From: a virus
Strand: one strand, 5' to 3'
Virus genome (UHGV): UHGV-0062899
Length of the DNA: 10,428 bases
Shown here: positions 1 to 10,428 of the stretch, piece by piece
How positions within the stretch are numbered: the stretch's first letter is position 1
Layout of the letters: every line of letters begins with the position of its first letter
Notes under the pieces: model-generated
Databases searched by the model: none
Seen by the model: the letters and a program-made list of their open reading frames with translations, nothing else
Told to the model about the DNA's origin: nothing
Program-made: the position numbers and the translations under genes

Positions 1-1132
1 CCGCCCACCACTGCATCATTTCTCTGCGCTTATCGAAATACTGAGCATGGTTGTATATTCCGCGCACAGATCCTCCGTTGGCATGTGCCAGTTGCACTTC
101 AATAGCGTCAGCAGGCCATTCGTGCTCGTTCATAATCGTGCTGAATTCATGCCTGAATCCGTGACCGCTTTCCAGACCTTCATAGCCGATTTGTTTGATC
201 ACAAGCAGTACCGCGTTCTCGCAGATTGGCTTCTTCTTATCGTTGCGACCGGCAAAAACAAACTCTGATACTGGTTTGGTGATTGAGCTTAGCGTAGTGA
301 GAAGTTCAACCACCTGGTCTGACATAGGAACCACATGAATTTTGCGTCCCTTCATCACACTGGCGTCGATGGTGATAATCCTGTTTTCAAAATCGACGTT
401 CTTCCATAGCATGGAACGAAGCTCTTTTGTTCTGAGGGCTGTGTAGCGTAAAACTTTGGTCGCAATGAGCGATACGATGCTTCCTGAAAATGTTGCCAGT
501 GCTTTGTTAAATGCCGGGATCTGGTCTGCAGGAAGAAACGGGAAGTTTTTCTTGCGGTATCCCTTCATGGCGTCAGCAAGGTCAGGTGCCGGGTTATATT
601 TAGCCCTACCAGTGACAATAGCGTAACGGAAAACCTCTCCGCATCTTCTGCGGGCTTTATTTGCTCGCTCCATTGCACCGCGATCTTCAAATCTGCGGAT
701 TACTTCCAGCAGTTGCATCGGCTCAATCTCCTGAATTTCAAGGCCGCCGATGATAGGTAAAATGTCGTCATCAAACATTTTTGCAAGTTCAGTCGCATAC
801 CCTACTGACCATACTTGCTTCTTGTGCTCGTACCATTCCTTGTAAATCGCACTAAAGGAATTGTTGTTAGACGAAGCCTTTTTCGCCTTTACCGGATCGA
901 TGCCAACCGAGATGTCTTTCCTCGCAGTCCATGCCTTATCCCTTGCCTCCTGCAAAGTCATTAGCGGATATTTTCCTACGGTCAGGATTTTCTCCTTACC
1001 GTCAATCTTGTAGCGAAGCTGCCATACCTTTTTCCCGGATACAGGGACATAAAGGTACAGGCCATTACCATCGAGAAGGCGGTATGGTTTTTCTTTCGGC
1101 TTTGCTGCTTCAATCTGCTTAACAGTGAGCAT
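1..1132 (-). CDS. int: P4-type tyrosine integrase, partial (C-terminal end beyond window start)
   Basis: Minus-strand frame open from ATG at 1130-1132 to the window edge; absent from the ORF track because it runs off the end. Translation starts MLTVKQIEAAKPKEKPYRLLDGNGLYLYVPVSGKKVWQLRYKIDGKEK, the arm-binding N-domain pattern of P4/CP4-57-type integrases. Near the window start it reads HGFRHEFSTIMNEHEWPADAIEVQLAHANGGSVRGIYNHAQYFDKRREMMQWW, giving the H-x-x-R box and catalytic Tyr region. About 377 codons are present; the last ~30-40 are missing. Confidence 0.9.
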   Translation of the reverse strand, partial: MLTVKQIEAAKPKEKPYRLLDGNGLYLYVPVSGKKVWQLRYKIDGKEKILTVGKYPLMTLQEARDKAWTARKDISVGIDPVKAKKASSNNNSFSAIYKEWYEHKKQVWSVGYATELAKMFDDDILPIIGGLEIQEIEPMQLLEVIRRFEDRGAMERANKARRRCGEVFRYAIVTGRAKYNPAPDLADAMKGYRKKNFPFLPADQIPAFNKALATFSGSIVSLIATKVLRYTALRTKELRSMLWKNVDFENRIITIDASVMKGRKIHVVPMSDQVVELLTTLSSITKPVSEFVFAGRNDKKKPICENAVLLVIKQIGYEGLESGHGFRHEFSTIMNEHEWPADAIEVQLAHANGGSVRGIYNHAQYFDKRREMMQWWA

Positions 1133-1148
1133 GGGTAAAAATCCGGTG

Positions 1149-1166
1149 GGATAAATTATTTTATCC
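1149..1166. promoter_or_regulatory. Inverted repeat GGATAAA-TTAT-TTTATCC just upstream of the integrase start
   Basis: Perfect 7-bp arms with 4-bp spacer, 17 bp upstream of the int ATG, in an AT-rich leader with no strong Shine-Dalgarno. Function as operator or IHF-like site is inferred only. Confidence 0.3.
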
Positions 1167-1293
1167 ACTTTTTACCCGTCATGGAGTGCGGCTGTCAACG
1201 ATCTGAAGCGAACCATGACGAACTATGAATCTACGGAAGGCTTGATATTAAGGGGGTTTTGCGGACTGGTACGGATGGGAGCGAACTGATAAA

Positions 1294-1316
1294 TGGCGTC
1301 CCTGCAGGAATCGTCT
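1294..1316 (-). other. Candidate att core: tRNA 3-prime-end-like fragment (T-arm/acceptor/CCA-like)
   Basis: Minus strand reads GACGATTCCTGCAGGGACGCCA, resembling the end of a tRNA (GATTCC T-loop-like, 7-nt acceptor-like, ends CCA). From memory it resembles a tRNA-Arg-type 3-prime end. The adjacent ~75 nt are AT-rich and cannot fold as a tRNA body, so this is a fragment. It lies ~160 bp upstream of the P4-type int, where P4-like attP cores sit. Confidence 0.35.
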
Positions 1317-1444
1317 TTTAATTTAACTTATTGATATTTATTGATTATAGTTTTATTGGCTGTTAGATGTACCCGTTATTGTACCCGTTTGATAGCGTAC
1401 TACTGGCCTGTTATTAGCGATATCTATCACCGCTGTTAAAGCAC

Positions 1445-1477: not shown

Positions 1478-1711
1478 TTACAGCGTTTTTTCCTGGTGGC
1501 TGATCGGGAACTTGTCCGGTGGAAGGGCTTCAAGGGTATGTGATGGCAAATCGGGACGGTTAAGCGTGCAGTAAATCTCTGTCATAGAGATAAACGTCAG
1601 GCCACACTTAAGGTTCTGGCACTGATGATAGCTTTTTCTTACCAGGTCGCTGAGTTCAACGCTGGTTCTTGTCTTCGCCGTTGCATGGCATTGAGGGCAA
1701 CGCATAGCCAT
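1478..1711 (-). CDS. Ogr/Delta-family zinc-finger late transcription activator (77 aa)
   Basis: MAMRCPQCHATAKTRTSVELSDLVRKSYHQCQNLKCGLTF has the C-x2-C-x22-C-x4-C spacing and the RTS / YHQCQN motifs of P2 Ogr and P4 Delta. GAGGAG Shine-Dalgarno sits 8 nt upstream of the ATG. Confidence 0.85.
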   Translation of the reverse strand: MAMRCPQCHATAKTRTSVELSDLVRKSYHQCQNLKCGLTFISMTEIYCTLNRPDLPSHTLEALPPDKFPISHQEKTL

Positions 1712-2854: not shown

Positions 2855-3592
2855 CTATTTTCTGAATGGCTCAATCCCCGCCGCCAGTCTCTTCTTATAA
2901 TCCATATCAGAGCGTGCTTTAGATTCCTGAATTGGCGAAGGACTGTTATTTAACGCATGGTTAATACTGCCAGACAATGCACCGGGGAAAAATGCCAGTA
3001 CAGGATCGCTGAAAAGACTACTGTCAGCATCACTCAATAATTCACGTACAACCGTTCTGGAGTCAACGCGAAGTAACTTCATAAATTCATCTGATAATAT
3101 TCTTTCTGCATCACTGGTGTTTAATCCTGCCAGAGAATAAAGCCCAATGACGACAGACAATCGCTCACCAACCAGCGCTCTGAGGTCGTCTTTAAGAGAC
3201 TGGAGAAAAGAATCCGCAATCACTGACGAAAGTTTAAAATAAGCCTCTTTCGTCTGGCGTGCCTGGCTTGCGGTTTGAATCCGTAGATCAAGCACCGTCA
3301 GGCTCTGGGATTCAATCAACTCCTGGATTTTTTGAAGCTTTACCATCACCTGCGCTGCGGACAGTGCCGCACCATCTGTTTCCGCACTTTCAACGCCTCC
3401 GTTCCTGAGCAACGCAAGCCCCCAGTCACCGGCACTATGGCCCGCGTTTGACTCCACTTCTATTTTTCGCTTTGTCTCGCTCAGGTTGGCAAGCACCTTC
3501 TCTTCGTCTGAAAGAGACTTATAGGCACGGTCAAATAGCTCTTTCTGCTGCTGGTAACTCACGAGTAATGCCTGCATGTTGTTTTGTGTCAT
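2855..3592 (-). CDS. Alpha-helical protein, possibly a Sid-like external scaffold / capsid size-determination protein (245 aa)
   Basis: Real-looking ORF forming an operon with the two genes downstream. It is rich in L/A/E/Q/S helical segments. Its size (245 aa vs 244 for P4 Sid) and position upstream of an Ogr/Delta-like gene fit Sid, and a segment SAGDWGLALLRNGGVES loosely matches what I recall of Sid. Functional call is tentative. Confidence 0.45.
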   Translation of the reverse strand: MTQNNMQALLVSYQQQKELFDRAYKSLSDEEKVLANLSETKRKIEVESNAGHSAGDWGLALLRNGGVESAETDGAALSAAQVMVKLQKIQELIESQSLTVLDLRIQTASQARQTKEAYFKLSSVIADSFLQSLKDDLRALVGERLSVVIGLYSLAGLNTSDAERILSDEFMKLLRVDSRTVVRELLSDADSSLFSDPVLAFFPGALSGSINHALNNSPSPIQESKARSDMDYKKRLAAGIEPFRK

Positions 3593-3747
3593 CGTCCTGC
3601 ACCTTGTGATTATTGCGATGGGAAAATGATTGCAGGAAAAATAAATCCAGTCGCACCGTTAAGGTTGTCAGGGGTGTACTACACCTATAAGCATCATTCG
3701 TCCCGGACGGTTTGCGCAGATAATGCAGACAGGCCAAAGGAGGAACT

Positions 3748-3957
3748 ATGCCCACATTACCCAGAAATAACAGGTCGGTGCTGAAATCACTGAGGATCCC
3801 CAATGAACTGGATCAGTACATAGTGGCGATGAGCAAGCGAAGTGGTGCGAGCTATTGTCGTTGCCTGATCGAACTGGCCGGTGCGGGTCTGCTGGCTAAA
3901 GGGATCGGGCGAATAGCCGTTCCTGAGATCGATTCCTGCCGGAAACATCGAATATAA
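3748..3957 (+). CDS. Small ribbon-helix-helix-like DNA-binding protein (69 aa), candidate regulator
   Basis: AAGGAGG Shine-Dalgarno 4-5 nt upstream of the ATG. KSLRIPNELDQYIVAMSKRSGASYCRCLIELA fits the beta-strand/helix/helix pattern of Arc/MetJ/CopG-type proteins. It is the only plus-strand gene and is divergent from the morphogenesis operon. A GATAAT -10-like hexamer lies at 3719-3724. Confidence 0.55.
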   Translation: MPTLPRNNRSVLKSLRIPNELDQYIVAMSKRSGASYCRCLIELAGAGLLAKGIGRIAVPEIDSCRKHRI

Positions 3958-4126
3958 CCCCGCCCAGCCCGTACGAGCGGGTGTATTACACATCCAGCCG
4001 CATACGCTCATATGGTACAGATCTGCCCTTGAATCCTTCACGATCTAGCCTGATGGGTGCCGTTCCCTTCAAAAAAATTGATGCATTAACACAAAAAGAT
4101 GTGATCAACTACCAGATGCAATATAA

Positions 4127-4160
4127 GCCTCTCAGAGCCACGCTGAGAGGTGTTTTCATT
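4127..4160 (+). terminator. Rho-independent terminator (plus strand)
   Basis: GCCTCTCAG-AGCCACG-CTGAGAGGT: a 9-bp stem with terminal G-U and 7-nt loop, followed by GTTTTCATT. It lies 170 bp downstream of the RHH-like gene. Confidence 0.5.
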
Positions 4161-4253
4161 ATCCACCTTCCTGCATTACCCATCTATAAAACGCATCACA
4201 TCAAGCCGGAGAATAATCAGGATATGCCATCCTGTCTCACCTCTCAGCGCGCG

Positions 4254-4281
4254 CTTGTTCCCCCGCCTCGCCCGCACGCAG
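4254..4281 (-). other. cos-like site (P2/P4/186-type cohesive-end sequence)
   Basis: Minus strand reads GGCGAGGCGGGGGAACAAGCGCGCGCTGAGAGG. The first 12 nt equal the start of the P2/P4 19-nt cohesive end as I recall it (GGCGAGGCGGGGAAAGCAC), and a CGCGCTGA block follows as I recall for P4. A chance 12-mer match in this window is improbable. Confidence 0.5.
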
Positions 4282-4589
4282 AAAGCCCGCTTTTTTGTGC
4301 AAATGTGCAGTCCGGCCAAAGCCGTGCCCCGTCTGGGCTGGAGTGGCAAAAGTACCATCAAAAAAATTGTGCATTAGCGTGCAAATTTGTGCGGTGATTT
4401 TGCAGCGATCATTTTCACCTTAAAAAGAGCCAAACTCCGGCTGCGCCCGGGCCAGTTATGCACGCTGTTTTCGTGTTGCACAATGTTGATTTATTGCCCT
4501 CGGTGCACGCTGATTTGAAAGTGAAGTGTGAAAAAAGGGTTAACAGAAAAAGAGCTGTTTTACTGAAAAACTGAGGGGAGGTACGGAAG

Positions 4590-4860
4590 TCGGTTACAAC
4601 GGTTACGGGGGTGAAATAATATGCTTAACTCAATGATTTATATTAATTAAATTTGTAACCTTTGTGAGGTTACAAAAGGTTCCATTAAAGTTACACCCAA
4701 TAAAATCAATCAGTTAAATATCTAAGTTGTAACTTTAGATAAGGTTACAGAGTAACCCGATCGTAACCCGGTTGTAACTTTTCCAAGTTGGTGAAAATTA
4801 CATATAAATCAATATAATATATTTATATCTTTACTTTGTAACTTTTGTAACCCGTTTCCG
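4590..4860. repeat. Iteron array (about 12 copies of GGTTACAA/TTGTAACC, both orientations) around an AT-rich core; putative replication origin or integrase arm sites
   Basis: Copies at 4592-4599, 4601-4607, 4653-4660, 4668-4675, 4689-4696, 4736-4743, 4743-4750, 4751-4758, 4761-4768, 4772-4779, 4836-4843 and 4846-4854. An AT-rich stretch at 4795-4835 lies among them. The array is non-coding and sits just downstream of the int2/primase operon. Confidence 0.6.
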
Positions 4861-5127
4861 ATCCCCCCCCTCAAATTCTGGAAAATCTGCTTTTTTTTAA
4901 AAAAGGCTTCTTTTCTGTTAAATGTTTTGTCATTTCGCCAAATGTCCGGCAATGGCTCCACTCCGGCAAACACTGCCACTTACGGCAGTGCTGGCCATAC
5001 ATCGAGTACAGTCATTTTTAACCGTGCTGCAGAACGGTCAGAAACGACGGTGATCCGGGCGATGAGGGCGTAATGCAGAACAGCTAAAAACGAAGGGAAT
5101 ATATCTACGCTACGAGGGAAAGGGGTA

Positions 5128-5147
5128 AACCGGCCCGTCAGCCGGTC
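5128..5147 (-). terminator. Possible terminator hairpin directly after the P2-type integrase stop
   Basis: Minus-strand RNA has a GC-rich stem ACCGGC/GCCGGU with a 5-6 nt loop, followed by UUUACCCCUUUCCC. The stem is short. Confidence 0.35.
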
Positions 5148-5149
5148 AT

Positions 5150-6130
5150 TCAGAGGCTGATTCCGCCAGAAAGGGGATTGAGTGAAACGGCGTGTTGCAG
5201 ATAGTCAGGCGCAACATGCGCATAAACCATCGTCTGCTGGATACTGGCGTGACCAAGAATTTGTTGTAAGGCGATAATATTGCCCCCGTTCATCATGAAC
5301 CAGCTTGCAAACGTATGGCGAAGCACATGCGTAGCCTGCCCGCGCGGCAGGTCCGGCTTAACCTCCCTAAGCCGCCCGCAAAAGGCTTCATAGTCAACGC
5401 TGAACAGCGGCCCGCAATCGCGGGTTTTGATCTCTTTTTCCAGTTCATCCGATATTGGGATCGTGCGCCTCTTCCCGTTTTTGGTTTTAAGAAAAGTTAC
5501 GCGTCCGTGGTTAATCTGCTCTCCCCGCAGTGTGCTGCCTTCTCCCCAGCGTGCGCCGGTGCTGAGGCACAAAAGAGCAACACGGCGATCGTCACCTGTA
5601 AGGGTATTCAATAATCGACTGATTTCCGATTTAGTAAGGTAGGTCATTGCTGCTGGTTTCTCCCTCAATGGCTCCAGCCCTTTACAGGGGTTATCAGCCT
5701 TGAATTCATCCAGTTTTATCAGGGCGCTGAACATACCCGAAAGGCGATATATATCACGGTTGACGGTGGCCGTGCTGATCCCTGAATCCAGCCGCTCGCT
5801 GCGATGCTGCGCGATGATTCGTTTAGTCAGCCGGTTAACTGCCGGGTTGCCCAGGGCTCTGATCGTTTTATCTAGGTGTCGTTTTTCGGCGTTTCCGTTC
5901 TCCAGCGTCCGGCCATACAGCAGCCACCAGATGTTTAGCAGCTCGCTGAGAGTACGCCGATCGGTGCTGGCGCCCAACCACTCTTTTTTATCGGCATTCG
6001 CCATAACATACCGTTCAAAGAGCGCTGCCTCCTGCTTTCTGTCAAAAATCCTGCGAAAGCGCTTACCGCTGCGCCCTCTGGCATAAATATCGACTTCATA
6101 ACGCCCGTCAGCCCGTTTTTTAATGGTCAT
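5150..6130 (-). CDS. int: P2-Int-like tyrosine recombinase, complete (326 aa)
   Basis: N-terminus MTIKKRADGRYEVDIYARGRSGKRFRRIFDRKQEA matches my recollection of P2/186-type integrases. Catalytic set is complete: LSTGARWGE (Arg I), KTKNGKRRTIPIS (Lys), HVLRHTFAS (His/Arg II), LGHASIQQT (His III), MVYAHV (Tyr). GAGGAA Shine-Dalgarno 8 nt upstream; start is 16 nt after the primase stop. Confidence 0.85.
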   Translation of the reverse strand: MTIKKRADGRYEVDIYARGRSGKRFRRIFDRKQEAALFERYVMANADKKEWLGASTDRRTLSELLNIWWLLYGRTLENGNAEKRHLDKTIRALGNPAVNRLTKRIIAQHRSERLDSGISTATVNRDIYRLSGMFSALIKLDEFKADNPCKGLEPLREKPAAMTYLTKSEISRLLNTLTGDDRRVALLCLSTGARWGEGSTLRGEQINHGRVTFLKTKNGKRRTIPISDELEKEIKTRDCGPLFSVDYEAFCGRLREVKPDLPRGQATHVLRHTFASWFMMNGGNIIALQQILGHASIQQTMVYAHVAPDYLQHAVSLNPLSGGISL

Positions 6131-6145
6131 ACTATTGTTCCTCTG

Positions 6146-8815
6146 CTACTGAGCGGCCGGCACTTTAAAAATCCAGCATTTCACCTGCTCAGGCTCTTTC
6201 GGGCCAGCCTCTCCACGCCCCTGATTTGCCAGTCTGGAAACCTCACTTCTTACCGTCTTCTGGCCCGTACACGGCCGCATACGCCCGTTTTTCAGGTAAT
6301 CCTGAATTTCTTTCGCCGGGGGAATATTTACACGCTGCATAGCAGCTATACGCATCAGGTGAGGGAAGTTAATGGCGATCTCGTCGCGATTCTCTTTCCC
6401 AAAATGGTTGACGCCGAAACGCTCCAGGCTATTCAGATAATCAAAGGCATCCCAGAACTCACGAACCACAGGGATATCCGCTTCCAGCGATTTAACCCGC
6501 TCCACCGCCATCACAGTAAGCTGTTCACAGGTGCGATCGAGGCGTTCTGCGGGAATATCCAGAACACAGGTCAGCGCCCTTACACATGCAATCATCTGGG
6601 CATGATTTTTGGCAATTCGGATATGACGAATTTCAGAGTGTTGTTCCAGCCTGATTTTTTCGGCCTCATACACCTCCTGAATAATCGACAATACTGCGCT
6701 TTCCCTGCATACCGCCCGGATCATAAAACCAGATACCTGATCGACCGGCAGACGCTCAAGGCGTTCAGCCGCCGCCCTGGTCAGCGATGACTGACGGCGT
6801 TTATCCGTAAACACATGGATAATACGTTCCAGTATCGCAGGTGAGGCGTTAACGGTGGCATTCTGCGCGATGACAATGCTGCCCCTGAATGGCGGCTCTC
6901 TGGTTTCATTGTTGTTGGTCTTAACACCAATCGCCCGTAATCCGCGCCCGTTGTAGAGCGGTTTTAGCTCATCGAAGTCAAAGCCGCGCAGCTTCTTCGT
7001 GTCTTGGGCGCGATCGCCTTCAAGCAGCACGACGGGAAGGTTTGAGACCTGGGCGAAGTTACGATAAATGCCCGCAACAGAACCCTTTGAAGGGTCAATT
7101 CCCTCATAGCTGTCCCTGCCACAGAGCCGCCAGAGAAAATCAATCAGCGTGGATTTACCTGTTCCCGGTTCACCGATAATCTCCAGAAAGGGAAAGCTGG
7201 CCTGCTGTTCGCGTATCTGTTCAACGAAGAATGTTCCCAGCCAGAATGCCAGCGCGACATAGCCATTTTCACCAAAAGCCGTCCAGATATCATCGGCCCA
7301 GCCTGACGAAAGCGAATTATCATCAGAATTGATATTGATTAACGGGGATCGGCTCAGTGTCTTGATATTCATCCCACCAATCTCAAAGTAATCTTCGCTG
7401 TTCAAGGAGTAGACCTTCCCGTTATGTATCGCCAGCTTATTGAATACCCATGCCCGCCAGTCCCTGTTATACCCAATAAAGTCCTGCGTCCTGACCTCTT
7501 TGATCCGGGGCAGATCCTTTTTAATCAGACCATCGAGCTGCTGGCTGGTTCCGGTATAGAGCGCACCTTTTGCCACATGGAGGAGACGCTTTTTAAACTC
7601 AGACGCAGAAGAGATCTGCCCCGCGGTAAAGGAGTCTTTCACTGCGGGTGTATTGCCTGGAAAGGCGATGCGAAAATAATACCAGGACTCGTCTGTAACT
7701 TCTGAACGCATAAAATACAGCGGTGCGGGGTGACAATTGGCTATTTCCTTAATTGCTCCAGACTCTTTCAATGCAATACTTCTGGCTTCACGTTCATCAT
7801 TAACTTTTTTATCGTTAAGGATACGCTCAACGGCCTTCATATGGCGCTCAATGTCCAGCTTAAACCAGTACACGCAGTTCCCGTATTCGAAGTGAAACTC
7901 AGGGCGTTCATTATGTTCAAACATCCGAAGCGCCTTATCTCGGGCGCTTTCCGCCAGCAACAGATCGCCGTAATAGCGGTACTCTTTCTGGTGTCGTCTG
8001 GTCAGCTTTCCGGTAAGGTGGAGATCGTTCCAGTCAGCTTTATTGCTCCCCTGTGAAGGAAGTGCGGCAACGGCTTTCCAGCCTTGTTCACGGCTCCGCG
8101 CCACATGGCGACGTATGGCTGTTTCCCCTGCTTTCCCATTGTCCAGCGCCCAGACAAGAAACGGCTTTTCTTTGCCCTGGAATTGTTCAGCAAGCGCTTT
8201 AAGCGCGGCTTCCGGGTAGTTTCCGGCAGTCATAATGGAAACGGCAGGGGTGCCGTTCTGATAAAGGCTAATGGCGTCAAAAATCCCCTCAGTTAGCCAG
8301 ATACAACTGACTTTAGCCAGATCCAGCGCTGGCGGAACCCACCAGTGACCGGCGTACTTACCGTGGAAGTTAGCCTTTCGATCAAAGCGTTCTGGCTTGT
8401 CGATAATCCGCTCCCACCAGATACCATCAGACAGGGCAAAGCGAACCGTTGCGCTTCCCATGCCGCCCTTATGGTAGCTTTCCTGCGTATAGCAGCCCTT
8501 TAAGCAGGTAGTATCCAGCCCTCTGGCTTCTCTCAGATAGGCTTCCGCAGCGGCAAAAGGCTGCTCAGGCGTGCTCTCATAGCGATCTGACCATGAGTTA
8601 AATAATTCAGGATAGAGCGATTTTACCGACAGATCAGCGCCGCAATTATTTTCCCGGCCACAGCGCAGCACCCAAGGATTTTCCATGCTGGTAAAGAGTT
8701 CTTTCTTGTTACATTCAGGGCAAATACCTGAGCGCAGATAGCCGTTCTGCTCTTTAAACTGGTAATCATGCACCAGTCGTTTTATGATTTCGGGGCGTAG
8801 ATCTTTTCTGTTCAT
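6146..8815 (-). CDS. Bifunctional primase / P-loop NTPase replication protein (zinc-ribbon + Toprim + Walker A/B), P4 alpha-like (889 aa)
   Basis: N-terminal C-x2-C-x16-C-x5-C zinc ribbon (CPECNKK...RCGRENNC); Toprim-like motifs IWLTEGIFDAISLY and LVWALDNGKAG; Walker A GEPGTGKST with downstream VVLLEGD (Walker B-like). AAGGA Shine-Dalgarno 7 nt upstream of the ATG. Confidence 0.85.
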   Translation of the reverse strand: MNRKDLRPEIIKRLVHDYQFKEQNGYLRSGICPECNKKELFTSMENPWVLRCGRENNCGADLSVKSLYPELFNSWSDRYESTPEQPFAAAEAYLREARGLDTTCLKGCYTQESYHKGGMGSATVRFALSDGIWWERIIDKPERFDRKANFHGKYAGHWWVPPALDLAKVSCIWLTEGIFDAISLYQNGTPAVSIMTAGNYPEAALKALAEQFQGKEKPFLVWALDNGKAGETAIRRHVARSREQGWKAVAALPSQGSNKADWNDLHLTGKLTRRHQKEYRYYGDLLLAESARDKALRMFEHNERPEFHFEYGNCVYWFKLDIERHMKAVERILNDKKVNDEREARSIALKESGAIKEIANCHPAPLYFMRSEVTDESWYYFRIAFPGNTPAVKDSFTAGQISSASEFKKRLLHVAKGALYTGTSQQLDGLIKKDLPRIKEVRTQDFIGYNRDWRAWVFNKLAIHNGKVYSLNSEDYFEIGGMNIKTLSRSPLININSDDNSLSSGWADDIWTAFGENGYVALAFWLGTFFVEQIREQQASFPFLEIIGEPGTGKSTLIDFLWRLCGRDSYEGIDPSKGSVAGIYRNFAQVSNLPVVLLEGDRAQDTKKLRGFDFDELKPLYNGRGLRAIGVKTNNNETREPPFRGSIVIAQNATVNASPAILERIIHVFTDKRRQSSLTRAAAERLERLPVDQVSGFMIRAVCRESAVLSIIQEVYEAEKIRLEQHSEIRHIRIAKNHAQMIACVRALTCVLDIPAERLDRTCEQLTVMAVERVKSLEADIPVVREFWDAFDYLNSLERFGVNHFGKENRDEIAINFPHLMRIAAMQRVNIPPAKEIQDYLKNGRMRPCTGQKTVRSEVSRLANQGRGEAGPKEPEQVKCWIFKVPAAQ

Positions 8816-8854: not shown

Positions 8855-9118
8855 TCACTCTTTGTCTTCTTGTACAGCATGTCCCAGATATTTGTCACAA
8901 ATCCCCAGGCGTTTAACTTCCTGTAGTACTGATGAAATATCTTCACTGATATAACTGAAAATATCCGGTATCCATAAGAGTGGCATCGCGTTAGCTTCAC
9001 ACTGGCGAATATGTAAATGCATCTGAAATGCGACATTCCTCGCGCGATTCAGTTTGTGATAATTCTCAATACTGAGGTGAGACGGATTAACACTCTGAAT
9101 ATGATTACTTGTTGTCAT
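8855..9118 (-). CDS. Hypothetical protein (87 aa)
   Basis: AGAGGA Shine-Dalgarno 5-6 nt upstream of the ATG; same strand as the replication operon; no family recognised. Confidence 0.5.
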   Translation of the reverse strand: MTTSNHIQSVNPSHLSIENYHKLNRARNVAFQMHLHIRQCEANAMPLLWIPDIFSYISEDISSVLQEVKRLGICDKYLGHAVQEDKE

Positions 9119-9800: not shown

Positions 9801-10047
9801 GAGCCACCTCACGAGCTGTTATCCGATCTTTTAATTCAGCAATTAAGCGGTTCAGGACGTCCCGCCCTTTATCGTTCAAAGCGTCAAGGCCGTAATCGTA
9901 AGCGGCAAAAATGGCGATCTCCATTTCACGCGAATCTATTTCAACCGTTACTTTTGTACCTGGCTTGATGAAAGCTGGCGGCGCGTAGTGGTTATCATGG
10001 AACGGGTTAAGTGTTGCGGCTTTTTGGTTATCAAGGGGGTTAAACAT
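9793..10047 (-). CDS. Hypothetical small protein g2 (84 aa)
   Basis: Start taken at ATG (MFNPLDNQ...) overlapping the g1 stop (ATGTTTAA), preceded by GAGGTGG. C-terminus is REVAHV, the same as g1. Confidence 0.55.
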   Translation of the reverse strand: MFNPLDNQKAATLNPFHDNHYAPPAFIKPGTKVTVEIDSREMEIAIFAAYDYGLDALNDKGRDVLNRLIAELKDRITAREVAHV

Positions 10048-10237
10048 GGGCCACCTCGCGAACCGGCAGACGACCGGCAAAAGAGGCGATAAATTCACGC
10101 GCTATAACGCGGCGTGCGGCCTGATAGGTTGAGGCGGTGACTTCTTCACGGTGTGGACGTGCGGACACGTCAGAACGGCGCACAGCGAGAAAAAGCCAAA
10201 CAAATTGGGGATGCAATGGGGCAGGGGTTGTCATCAT
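10040..10237 (-). CDS. Hypothetical small protein g1 (65 aa); alternative longer start at 10417
   Basis: ATG-ATG pair with AAGGAG 9 nt upstream (MMTTPAPLHPQF...). The frame stays open upstream to 10417 (125-aa track ORF), but that extension has no ribosome-binding site and contains a dyad repeat. Confidence 0.45.
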   Translation of the reverse strand: MMTTPAPLHPQFVWLFLAVRRSDVSARPHREEVTASTYQAARRVIAREFIASFAGRLPVREVAHV

Positions 10238-10266
10238 AATGATGATCTCCTTGTACTTAATTAAGG

Positions 10267-10307
10267 AGTCACCACCGGAGTTTCCACGCTCATGATTGGT
10301 GGTGACA
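10267..10307. promoter_or_regulatory. Dyad symmetry element upstream of the small-ORF cassette; candidate operator
   Basis: AGTCACCACC (10267-10276) and GGTGGTGACT (10298-10307): perfect 10-bp inverted arms with a 21-bp spacer, ~30 bp upstream of the g1 start. A near-palindrome TCATCATAATGATGA (10231-10245) covers the start codon. Confidence 0.3.
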
Positions 10308-10428
10308 CTGACAGGGGTGGAAATACCGGCGTACAAGGAGACCGGCCAGCCCGAAAGCTGCCCTGCCAGAGCCACCATTGATACTGCGCGGATCTGCTCC
10401 GCTGAATATGGTGGCACTGATTTAACGA

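Follow-up and report, generated by a model that had tools for sequence, protein, structure and literature searches.

The subject of this study is a 10,428-nucleotide (nt) stretch of the virus genome UHGV-0062899 (the window), which is most of an approximately 11.6-kb P2-dependent, P4-like satellite at a tRNA-Arg gene (argW), in tandem with a remnant of the KplE1/CPS-53 prophage. The satellite integrates by its own outer P4-type integrase, and it carries internally a second gene (window 5150-6130, minus strand) that is predicted to encode an intact P2-family (Peduoviridae-type) tyrosine integrase. We tentatively propose, with a probability of about 40%, that this inner integrase (Int), for which the satellite has no site, is a helper-matched enzyme that would act in trans on the attachment (att) sites of the helper prophage. 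We infer such an action because an intact and selected Int of the helper's family is kept at the end of the early operon, because no cis site accompanies it, and because its specificity region has been swapped independently of the surrounding DNA and is matched to P2-like lineages. The broader idea, that capsid-encoding P2-dependent satellites use a type-swappable helper Int on helper att sites, either to excise the helper on demand or to block its integration or excision, seems to us slightly better than an even bet.

An inner integrase without its attachment site

The open reading frame (ORF) of the inner Int is uninterrupted and encodes 326 amino acids (aa), with the Pfam domains Int_N (PF24624, 9.7e-32) and Phage_integrase (PF00589, 1.1e-19) and a match to PHROG 1 'integrase' (1.3e-81). 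Over the full length it is 82.5% identical to the Ints of the Salmonella phages SEN4/SEN5, 82.7% to that of the Enterobacter phage phiT5282H and 65% to that of P2/L-413C. The catalytic R194 (in STGARWGE), the lysine in the KTKNGKRR hairpin, H268-x-x-R271, H294 and Y303 are all present, and this R-K-H-R-H-Y set is invariant in alignments with phage Ints. A first-pass annotation of the window had described the recombinase as intact with a full catalytic set, and this description holds. It had also placed the gene co-oriented with and directly downstream of the primase, which is correct apart from the gap, which is 15 nt and not 16 nt. The gene is the last one of an early operon that consists of a C4-type RNA, icd/ash, an epsilon-like derepression protein, the primase (889 aa, Toprim type) and int.

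In P2-like phages the phage attachment site (attP) lies directly after int, as read here for SEN5, phiT5282H and L-413C. In SEN5 and phiT5282H, two TTGTCTACA arm repeats starting 5 nt past the int stop codon are followed by the core (…CCCCCACATCATGTGGGGGAAGACAGGGATGGTG, adjoining cpxP in Salmonella) and two more arm repeats; L-413C has GTGTCCACA arms and the same core as SEN5. A SEN5-type attP in the satellite was rejected: BLAST of window 3501-6400 against SEN5 showed DNA homology confined to the int ORF (window 6076-5187), and a pattern search for the SEN5 arm and core sequences found no match anywhere in the satellite. A cognate attP was also absent from the E. coli satellites E94, M15 and TUM1880 when these were compared with P88, 569R5 and Chuche, respectively. 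Together with the SEN5 result, this means that no cognate attP was found in four lineages, each searched against its nearest phage. An arm-like match between E94 and P88 (13/15) was dismissed, as by our estimate it is within chance expectation. In each integrated copy examined, a P4-type integrase lies at an end of the element and the P2-type gene in the interior; the att repeat was located in one of these copies, that of E. coli strain KCJ3K291. The possibility that the A36 satellite uses the phage's bacterial attachment site (attB) was rejected: the two have similar coordinates by coincidence, and this satellite lies between gcd and hpt, with its own integrase at the gcd-side end.

The E94, TUM1880 and M15 satellites have primases that are 97.8 to 99.6% identical, but their inner Ints are only 47 to 55% identical. 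Along a backbone of about 9 kb at 92 to 99.5% identity, the sole nonhomologous segment starts about 10 nt ahead of the int ATG and extends to about codon 260; from 200 to 240 nt before the int stop codon onwards the sequences are homologous again, through the spacer and the iterons. Between icd and the capsid gene, we found no DNA that covaries with the Int type. The nearest phage Int is that of SEN4/SEN5/phiT5282H for the window type (82 to 87% identity), P88 for the E94 type (77%), Chuche/P884B11/Shae_phiSM for the TUM1880 type (81 to 82%) and vB_EcoM-569R5 for the M15 type (89%). The M15-type int also has about 90.7% DNA identity to a prophage int that about 320 E. coli genomes carry, among them ST131 and UTI89 strains. 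A fifth Int type (P0077), related to SEN4, is found in an E94-like backbone with an E94-like spacer.

The genes themselves are mosaics. In the window lineage, int codons 1 to 36 are satellite specific, with a nonsynonymous divergence (dN) of 0.024 among satellites versus 0.24 to the phage, and residues 37 to 326 of the Kluyvera-group Int are closer to phage SEN5 than to the window's Int. Domain-wise identities point to a similar mosaic in the M15 type and a weaker one in TUM1880, and to none in E94. The last ~70 int codons are also satellite specific. The crossovers are located in stretches that are conserved among all P2-family int genes. In P2-type Ints, the N-terminal domain binds the arm sites, the core-binding domain sets the integration specificity and the terminal domains are conserved (PMC3448106), and the crossover positions fit this published division. 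Between its start codon and about codon 260, a stretch that comprises the arm-binding, core-binding and proximal catalytic parts, int behaves as an exchangeable cassette that tracks the Int types of the Peduoviridae. As a separate observation, the E94, TUM1880 and M15 Ints have a common acidic C-terminal tail (…FNPVANIVITEEKEPAE) that is satellite specific and absent from the matching phage Ints (last ~20 residues; L017, L026 and L027 in our numbering).

The arrangement is widespread. A primase scan detected close relatives in Kluyvera, Izhakiella, "Candidatus Erwinia dacicola" and a metagenome bin; in all of these int starts 18 nt after the primase, with an Int identity of 86 to 87%. The primase is followed by int in every relative examined among genomes and metagenomes (L005-L008, L013-L016 and L032) and also in E. 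coli E94, TUM1880, M15, A36 and K_EC180; the junction was present in about 28/40 rows sampled from 94 matching E. coli genomes. A distant subfamily, with primases that are 58 to 60% identical, occurs in dozens of E. coli genomes in the order helix-turn-helix protein, Icd, primase, int, GGTTACA array, Ogr and capsid. Between the window and the Kluyvera, Izhakiella and metagenome copies, int has a synonymous divergence (dS) of about 1.15 and a dN of about 0.08, giving a dN/dS of about 0.07, and the primase has a dN/dS of about 0.06 in the same comparison. Copies from several genera, with at least five Int types between them, nearly always have an intact int ORF; the rare broken ones comprise a frameshift in the degenerate genome of the symbiont "Ca. 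Erwinia dacicola" and a truncating deletion in K_EC180. By these evolutionary criteria the inner int appears to be functional and under purifying selection.

Possible roles of the inner integrase

In P2, int is transcribed from the Pc promoter. In a derepressed helper, Cox would shut off Pc at once, and hence also the helper's own int. In the version of our proposal that we prefer, the satellite Int would supply the recombinase that a derepressed P2-type prophage lacks and, together with the helper's Cox, would bring about excision of the helper. The excised helper would replicate and express its late genes, and the satellite would replicate and be packaged via its P2-type cos site. Cox is known to repress Pc, to be needed for excision and to activate P4 (PMC3936717), and in situ replication prior to excision has been reported for P2 (PMC10111431).

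Several points weigh against an action on the helper's att sites. The benefit that the satellite would have from excising its helper is a conjecture, and the P2 prophage on which classical P4 draws is not excised. Up to residue ~40, the satellite Int is only 62 to 72% identical to the nearest phage Int in four of the five type comparisons, versus 78 to 98% for residues 41 to 260; because of this divergence of the arm domain, binding of the helper's arm sites is not assured. The arm domain of E94 is phage-like (88% identical), and by our own count the N-domains of P2/L-413C and SEN5 are about equally divergent and their arm repeats differ by one base. No SEN4-type prophage int was found at megablast sensitivity in KCJ3K291, which carries the satellite. 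A cis site at the outer ends of the TUM1880 and M15 elements, which lie outside the comparison, is conceivable.

It is also possible, but unlikely, that the satellite Int interferes with recombination by P2-like phages. It would occupy the core sites of the helper or of a competing phage, or form mixed tetramers with the helper Int, and so block or corrupt integration or excision; the helper could, for example, be kept from excision and packaging, or lysogenization could be prevented, and the locus would be an arms-race cargo gene. A hypervariable cassette in a nearly identical backbone is what is seen in defence and counter-defence loci, P4-like elements have a minor cargo hotspot downstream of their primase (PMC13586616), and the block that follows int borders cargo hotspots in P2-like phages. 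An arm-binding domain that differs from the nearest phage, combined with a core-binding part that matches it, as in four of the five types, would suit occupancy of the core without a productive intasome; the E94 type, with its phage-like arm domain, does not fit this. Moreover, a pure blocker needs no catalytic residues, yet all of them are kept under strong purifying selection across a dS above 1, and none of the PADLOC defence models matched Int or the neighbouring small ORFs.

Somewhat less likely again is a recombinase that acts in cis, either as a second integration module for another chromosomal site or as a system that, near the origin, would resolve multimers or be coupled to replication while the satellite replicates like a plasmid. 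These roles had been put forward in the first-pass annotation, with the region 4590-4860 as a recombination substrate and a second att core to be sought elsewhere. It was correct that int is followed by an iteron array, as 13 of the 35 GGTTACA-type matches in the window (at most one mismatch) fall within 4592-4852. The gaps between them are AT-rich, and 32-nt inverted repeats border the array. The position of int, adjoining these origin-like iterons and cotranscribed with the primase, the flanking inverted repeats and the assembly of two family members as ~12-kb circles could all fit a role in cis. Against such a role, the specificity part of Int is wholly different in satellites with 92 to 99.5% identical surroundings and no cis DNA changes along with it, which argues against multimer resolution or a coupling to replication; the spacer and the iterons track the backbone and primase subfamily and not the Int type. 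The lack of a phage-type attP, with both arm and core sequences missing from the satellite, and the internal position of the gene argue against a second integration system.

The same boxes and dyad layout are found in lineages with primases that are 58 to 60% identical, whatever their Int type, and the iteron segment has one orientation in 9/9 aligned sequences, with no sign of inversion. Because the array follows the primase lineage and not the integrase type, it is best read as a putative origin for the primase-helicase rather than as a recombination substrate. This is by analogy with P4, where the alpha protein acts with the ori/crr iterons. We also considered the GGTTACA iterons as arm sites of Int, since they resemble the phage arms GTCTACA and GTCCACA. 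This was rejected because the same boxes and layout occur with strongly differing Int N-domains (E94, M15 and P0077) and track the primase family. Downstream of the distant primase relatives L009-L011, the iteron search was uninformative.

The spacer past int is highly conserved, with 95% identity in a block of about 90 nt between satellite lineages whose int genes have a dS above 1. It shows no codon periodicity and has no Rfam match. Copies of this block that are 77 to 85% identical are found at operon ends in P2-like prophages (L020, 9001-9090; L021-L024, ~3001-3099), after gpA or after the tail-fibre assembly gene, where they border two known cargo hotspots and are far from int and attP. 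Because the block is a P2-family sequence located far from int in the phages, its conservation says nothing about the target of Int, and this best-conserved part of the spacer argues against a role in cis. We therefore rejected the ideas that the spacer between int and the origin is a recombination site, contains a small ORF or specifies an RNA. In a scan of viral contigs, a 26-mer of the block had no match, and a 13-6-13 inverted repeat at 4965-4996 is not kept in relatives.

The least probable explanation is that the gene is a passenger without a function of its own, which stays in place while homologous recombination with int genes of P2-like prophages in the same cell overwrites it time and again, via the conserved motif-coding ends. 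This would fit the mosaic structure, whose breakpoints lie close to the start codon or to the conserved KQEA..FERY region and within the conserved ~70 codons at the C-terminal end, and also the degenerate copies in "Ca. Erwinia dacicola" and K_EC180. It would not fit a dN/dS that equals the value of the essential primase where synonymous divergence is saturated, ORFs that stay intact across genera and Int types, or a position that is kept even in the subfamilies with distant primases.

A conserved and selected helper-type Int without a site suggests that satellites and helpers interact in a further, new way, through the excision or integration of the prophage. If an action in trans on helper att sites is correct, the parasite carries the recombinase specificity of its host virus and changes it by cassette exchange as its helpers change. 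This would be a natural retargeting of integrase specificity by swapping of the cassette that ends at about codon 260. For annotation, it matters that many 'phage integrase' genes of Enterobacterales are satellite-borne. In the literature searched, which leaves most subscription journals outside its coverage, we found no description of a second or helper-type integrase in satellites, nor of such a control of the helper.

Anatomy and borders of the satellite

On the minus strand, in the 5' to 3' direction, the gene order is the C4/CI-type RNA, the Icd/Ash gene, four small ORFs, the 87-aa protein, the primase-helicase and the P2-type int, and beyond int the GC-rich hairpin, the conserved spacer, the iteron array, cos, the 245-aa protein, the capsid protein and Ogr/Delta (Table 1).

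Table 1. Features of the satellite in the window, listed from right to left
Feature	Position	Strand	Evidence or remark
C4/CI-type antisense immunity RNA, head of the early operon	10295-10382	-	Rfam RF01695, 79 bits (gathering threshold 45), E = 1.3e-14
Icd/Ash-family gene, cut by the window end	10040-10428	-	Pfam Phage_ASH, 4e-28 on the KCJ3K291 copy
87-aa protein, P4 epsilon-like position	8855-9118	-	PHROG 10016, function unknown; 78% identical homologues directly upstream of the primase in relatives
Primase-helicase, 889 aa, analogous to P4 alpha	6146-8815	-	Zinc finger, Toprim, Walker A GEPGTGKST; Pfam Toprim_2/Toprim_3
Primase-int spacer, 15 nt	6131-6145	-	GAGGAA ribosome-binding site, 8 nt before the int start codon
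Predicted P2-family tyrosine integrase, 326 aa, intact, without cognate attP	5150-6130	-	Pfam, PHROG, alignments
GC-rich hairpin ACCGGC-TGACGG-GCCGGT, then TTT	5122-5145	-	By eye, just past the int stop codon
Noncoding block, ~90 nt, with invariant GTGCTGCAG	4962-5052		Common to P2-like prophages
Dyad-symmetric iteron array, putative replication origin	4575-4869		13 GGTTACA-type boxes in both orientations
P2-type cos site, GCGTGCGGGCGAGGCGGGGGAACAAGCGCGCGCTG	4245-4279	-	L-413C cos junction: 20/22 and 23/28 positions
245-aa protein, scaffold position upstream of the capsid gene	2855-3592	-	31% identity; adjoins the capsid gene in relatives
P2-family major capsid protein homologue, 345 aa	1780-2817	-	Pfam PF05125, 6e-99, full length
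Ogr/Delta-like zinc-finger late-gene activator, 77 aa, single domain	1478-1711	-	Pfam PF04606, 9.8e-16
TGTACCCGT direct repeats	1369-1389		Same 9-mer elsewhere only near the other end of the element
att repeat, satellite end, partial copy of the tRNA-Arg argW 3' end	~1294-1313		Repeat GTCCCCTGCAGGAATCG in KCJ3K291

The immunity RNA falls within an ORF that RefSeq annotates as 'Icd-like' (10041-10640 in window coordinates), and because of this the true start of Icd/Ash is probably the ATG near 10238, downstream of the RNA. The homologue of the 87-aa protein in relative L013 carries Pfam PF25738 'Derepression'. The primase matches PHROG 1139 'DNA primase' over its full length (1082 bits). The hairpin just past int is tentatively read as the probable terminator of the primase-int operon; a consensus terminator scan did not pick it up. 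The cos match includes GGCGAGGCGGGG, the start of the 19-nt cohesive end. For the 245-aa protein there was no family match in Pfam, PHROG or PADLOC. Psu had no match among the ORFs scanned with Pfam and PHROG, and Sid was also not found, although its absence is less certain as there is no Pfam model for Sid. The element appears to belong to a capsid-encoding branch of P2-dependent satellites, which marker sets based on P4 may miss.

Among 5,426 complete E. coli genomes, only that of strain KCJ3K291 matches the whole window (99.5%). The order there is dsdC, torI and other KplE1/CPS-53 remnants, intS, the satellite, tRNA-Arg (argW) and yfdC. The integrase at the left edge of the window (1-1132, minus strand, with the final codons cut off by the window edge) carries a P4-type domain set (Pfam) and matches the intS annotated in about 2,200 E. 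coli genomes with 94 to 99.9% DNA identity, and window 1-1313 is found in other E. coli genomes as an intS/tRNA-Arg junction, with up to 99.9% identity. By these matches it can be identified as IntS of the neighbouring KplE1/CPS-53 prophage, outside the att repeat of the satellite. In KCJ3K291 the repeat GTCCCCTGCAGGAATCG is a 17-bp exact repeat of the tRNA-Arg 3' end that delimits the satellite; in the window's copy, 1 nt of the C-run is deleted.

There are 57 differences between the window and KCJ3K291. Because 55 of them are at or before position 1299, with the other 2 in the remaining 9.1 kb, the two sides of the att repeat have separate histories. The divergence is 4.2% in the intS flank versus 0.02% in the satellite, with a sharp change at 1299, which means that the same satellite has very recently entered different chromosomal backgrounds or recombined into them.

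The first-pass annotation had assigned the left-edge integrase and the inner Int to a single element. The att repeat separates the two, so that the pair it named lies on separately bounded islands, an outcome that the annotation itself had listed as a refutation. The satellite does hold two tyrosine recombinases, as was claimed, but these are the inner P2-type Int and an outer P4-type integrase of 419 aa outside the window, and IntS is neither of them. In the KCJ3K291 copy, the outer integrase adjoins tRNA-Arg, about 1.9 kb past the right end of the window, and this part of the satellite also encodes an AlpA-type protein (Pfam 8e-19). The alternative suggestion of two tandem elements is right about IntS, which belongs to the adjacent remnant, and leaves the P2-like recombinase, well inside the satellite, unexplained. 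Tandem islands at argW are easily misread as one element. The TGTACCCGT repeats, which recur at the other end of the element at about 12757-12797 in KCJ3K291 coordinates (L001, about 24757-24797), are probably arm-type sites of the outer P4-type integrase, as inferred from their positions.

Several other observations were made on relatives. The circular assemblies are L006 (a contig of 12,723 nt with a 507-bp exact terminal redundancy) and L007 (a contig of 11,984 nt with an ORF that is continuous across the contig ends), and they suggest that in those samples the element was episomal, excised or packaged. The filing of L006 under a metagenome-assembled genome of Bacillota is probably a binning error. 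Toxin cargo (MazEF or Hok) is present at the capsid-distal end in E94 (L017), K_EC180 (L025) and A36 (L029). In K_EC180, int has lost its 3' half by the deletion, which also takes the iteron array and the start of ogr. In E94 there are insertions of IS903 and IS5, and the outer integrase is disrupted by one of them. In A36 the capsid module is upstream of icd.

Comparison with known systems

Satellites are at present modelled with one integrase, which serves their own integration, and pipelines for finding satellites explicitly assume a single integrase per element (PMC10085698). The Ints of P2-like phages (P2/L-413C, SEN4/SEN5 and P88) are of the same family and length (~326 to 337 aa) as the satellite Int and have the same domain order of arm-binding, core-binding and catalytic domains, with 65 to 87% identity. 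Like the phage Ints, the satellite Int types differ mainly in the core-binding region (PMC3448106). Unlike the phage genes, the satellite gene has no C/Cox switch beside it and no adjacent attP, it is placed in a primase operon, and its first ~36 and last ~70 codons are satellite specific.

In the multimer-resolution systems Cre/loxP, ResD/rfsF and Xer/cer, the recombinase is accompanied by a cis site, and none accompanies the satellite Int. A switch of the FimB/FimE type has a segment flanked by inverted repeats that is found in both orientations; the iteron segment of the satellite is flanked by the 32-nt repeats, and its orientation is the same among the nine copies aligned. The integrase of the Vibrio cholerae PLE uses a helper-phage protein as its directionality factor. 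Satellites that induce their helper prophage, the EPIPs, have also been reported (PMC12822802). The system described here resembles both in that satellite and helper would communicate through the recombination or induction machinery. In those systems the recombinase of the satellite has the satellite as its target, or it is not known how induction comes about, whereas here the recombinase is of the helper's type and has no site.

A further comparison is with the satellite phage P4 and P4-like elements, which the element resembles in its size (~11.6 kb), its integration in a tRNA gene by a P4-type integrase, its AlpA-type regulator, its Ash/epsilon-type genes and its C4/CI-type RNA, as well as in its Toprim primase-helicase with a downstream iteron origin, its Ogr/Delta activator and its P2-type cos site. 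In place of Psu and Sid, which were not found, it has a P2-family capsid gene and a gene in the scaffold position, the morphogenesis genes are co-oriented with the early operon, and the gene order differs. Its primase does not match PF03288, the model used for P4 alpha in published searches (PMC8628076). The element is P4-like in its working and not a canonical P4-like satellite, with no Psu or Sid, its own capsid gene and another gene order, and in addition to the P4-type integrase it carries an extra integrase of the helper's type.

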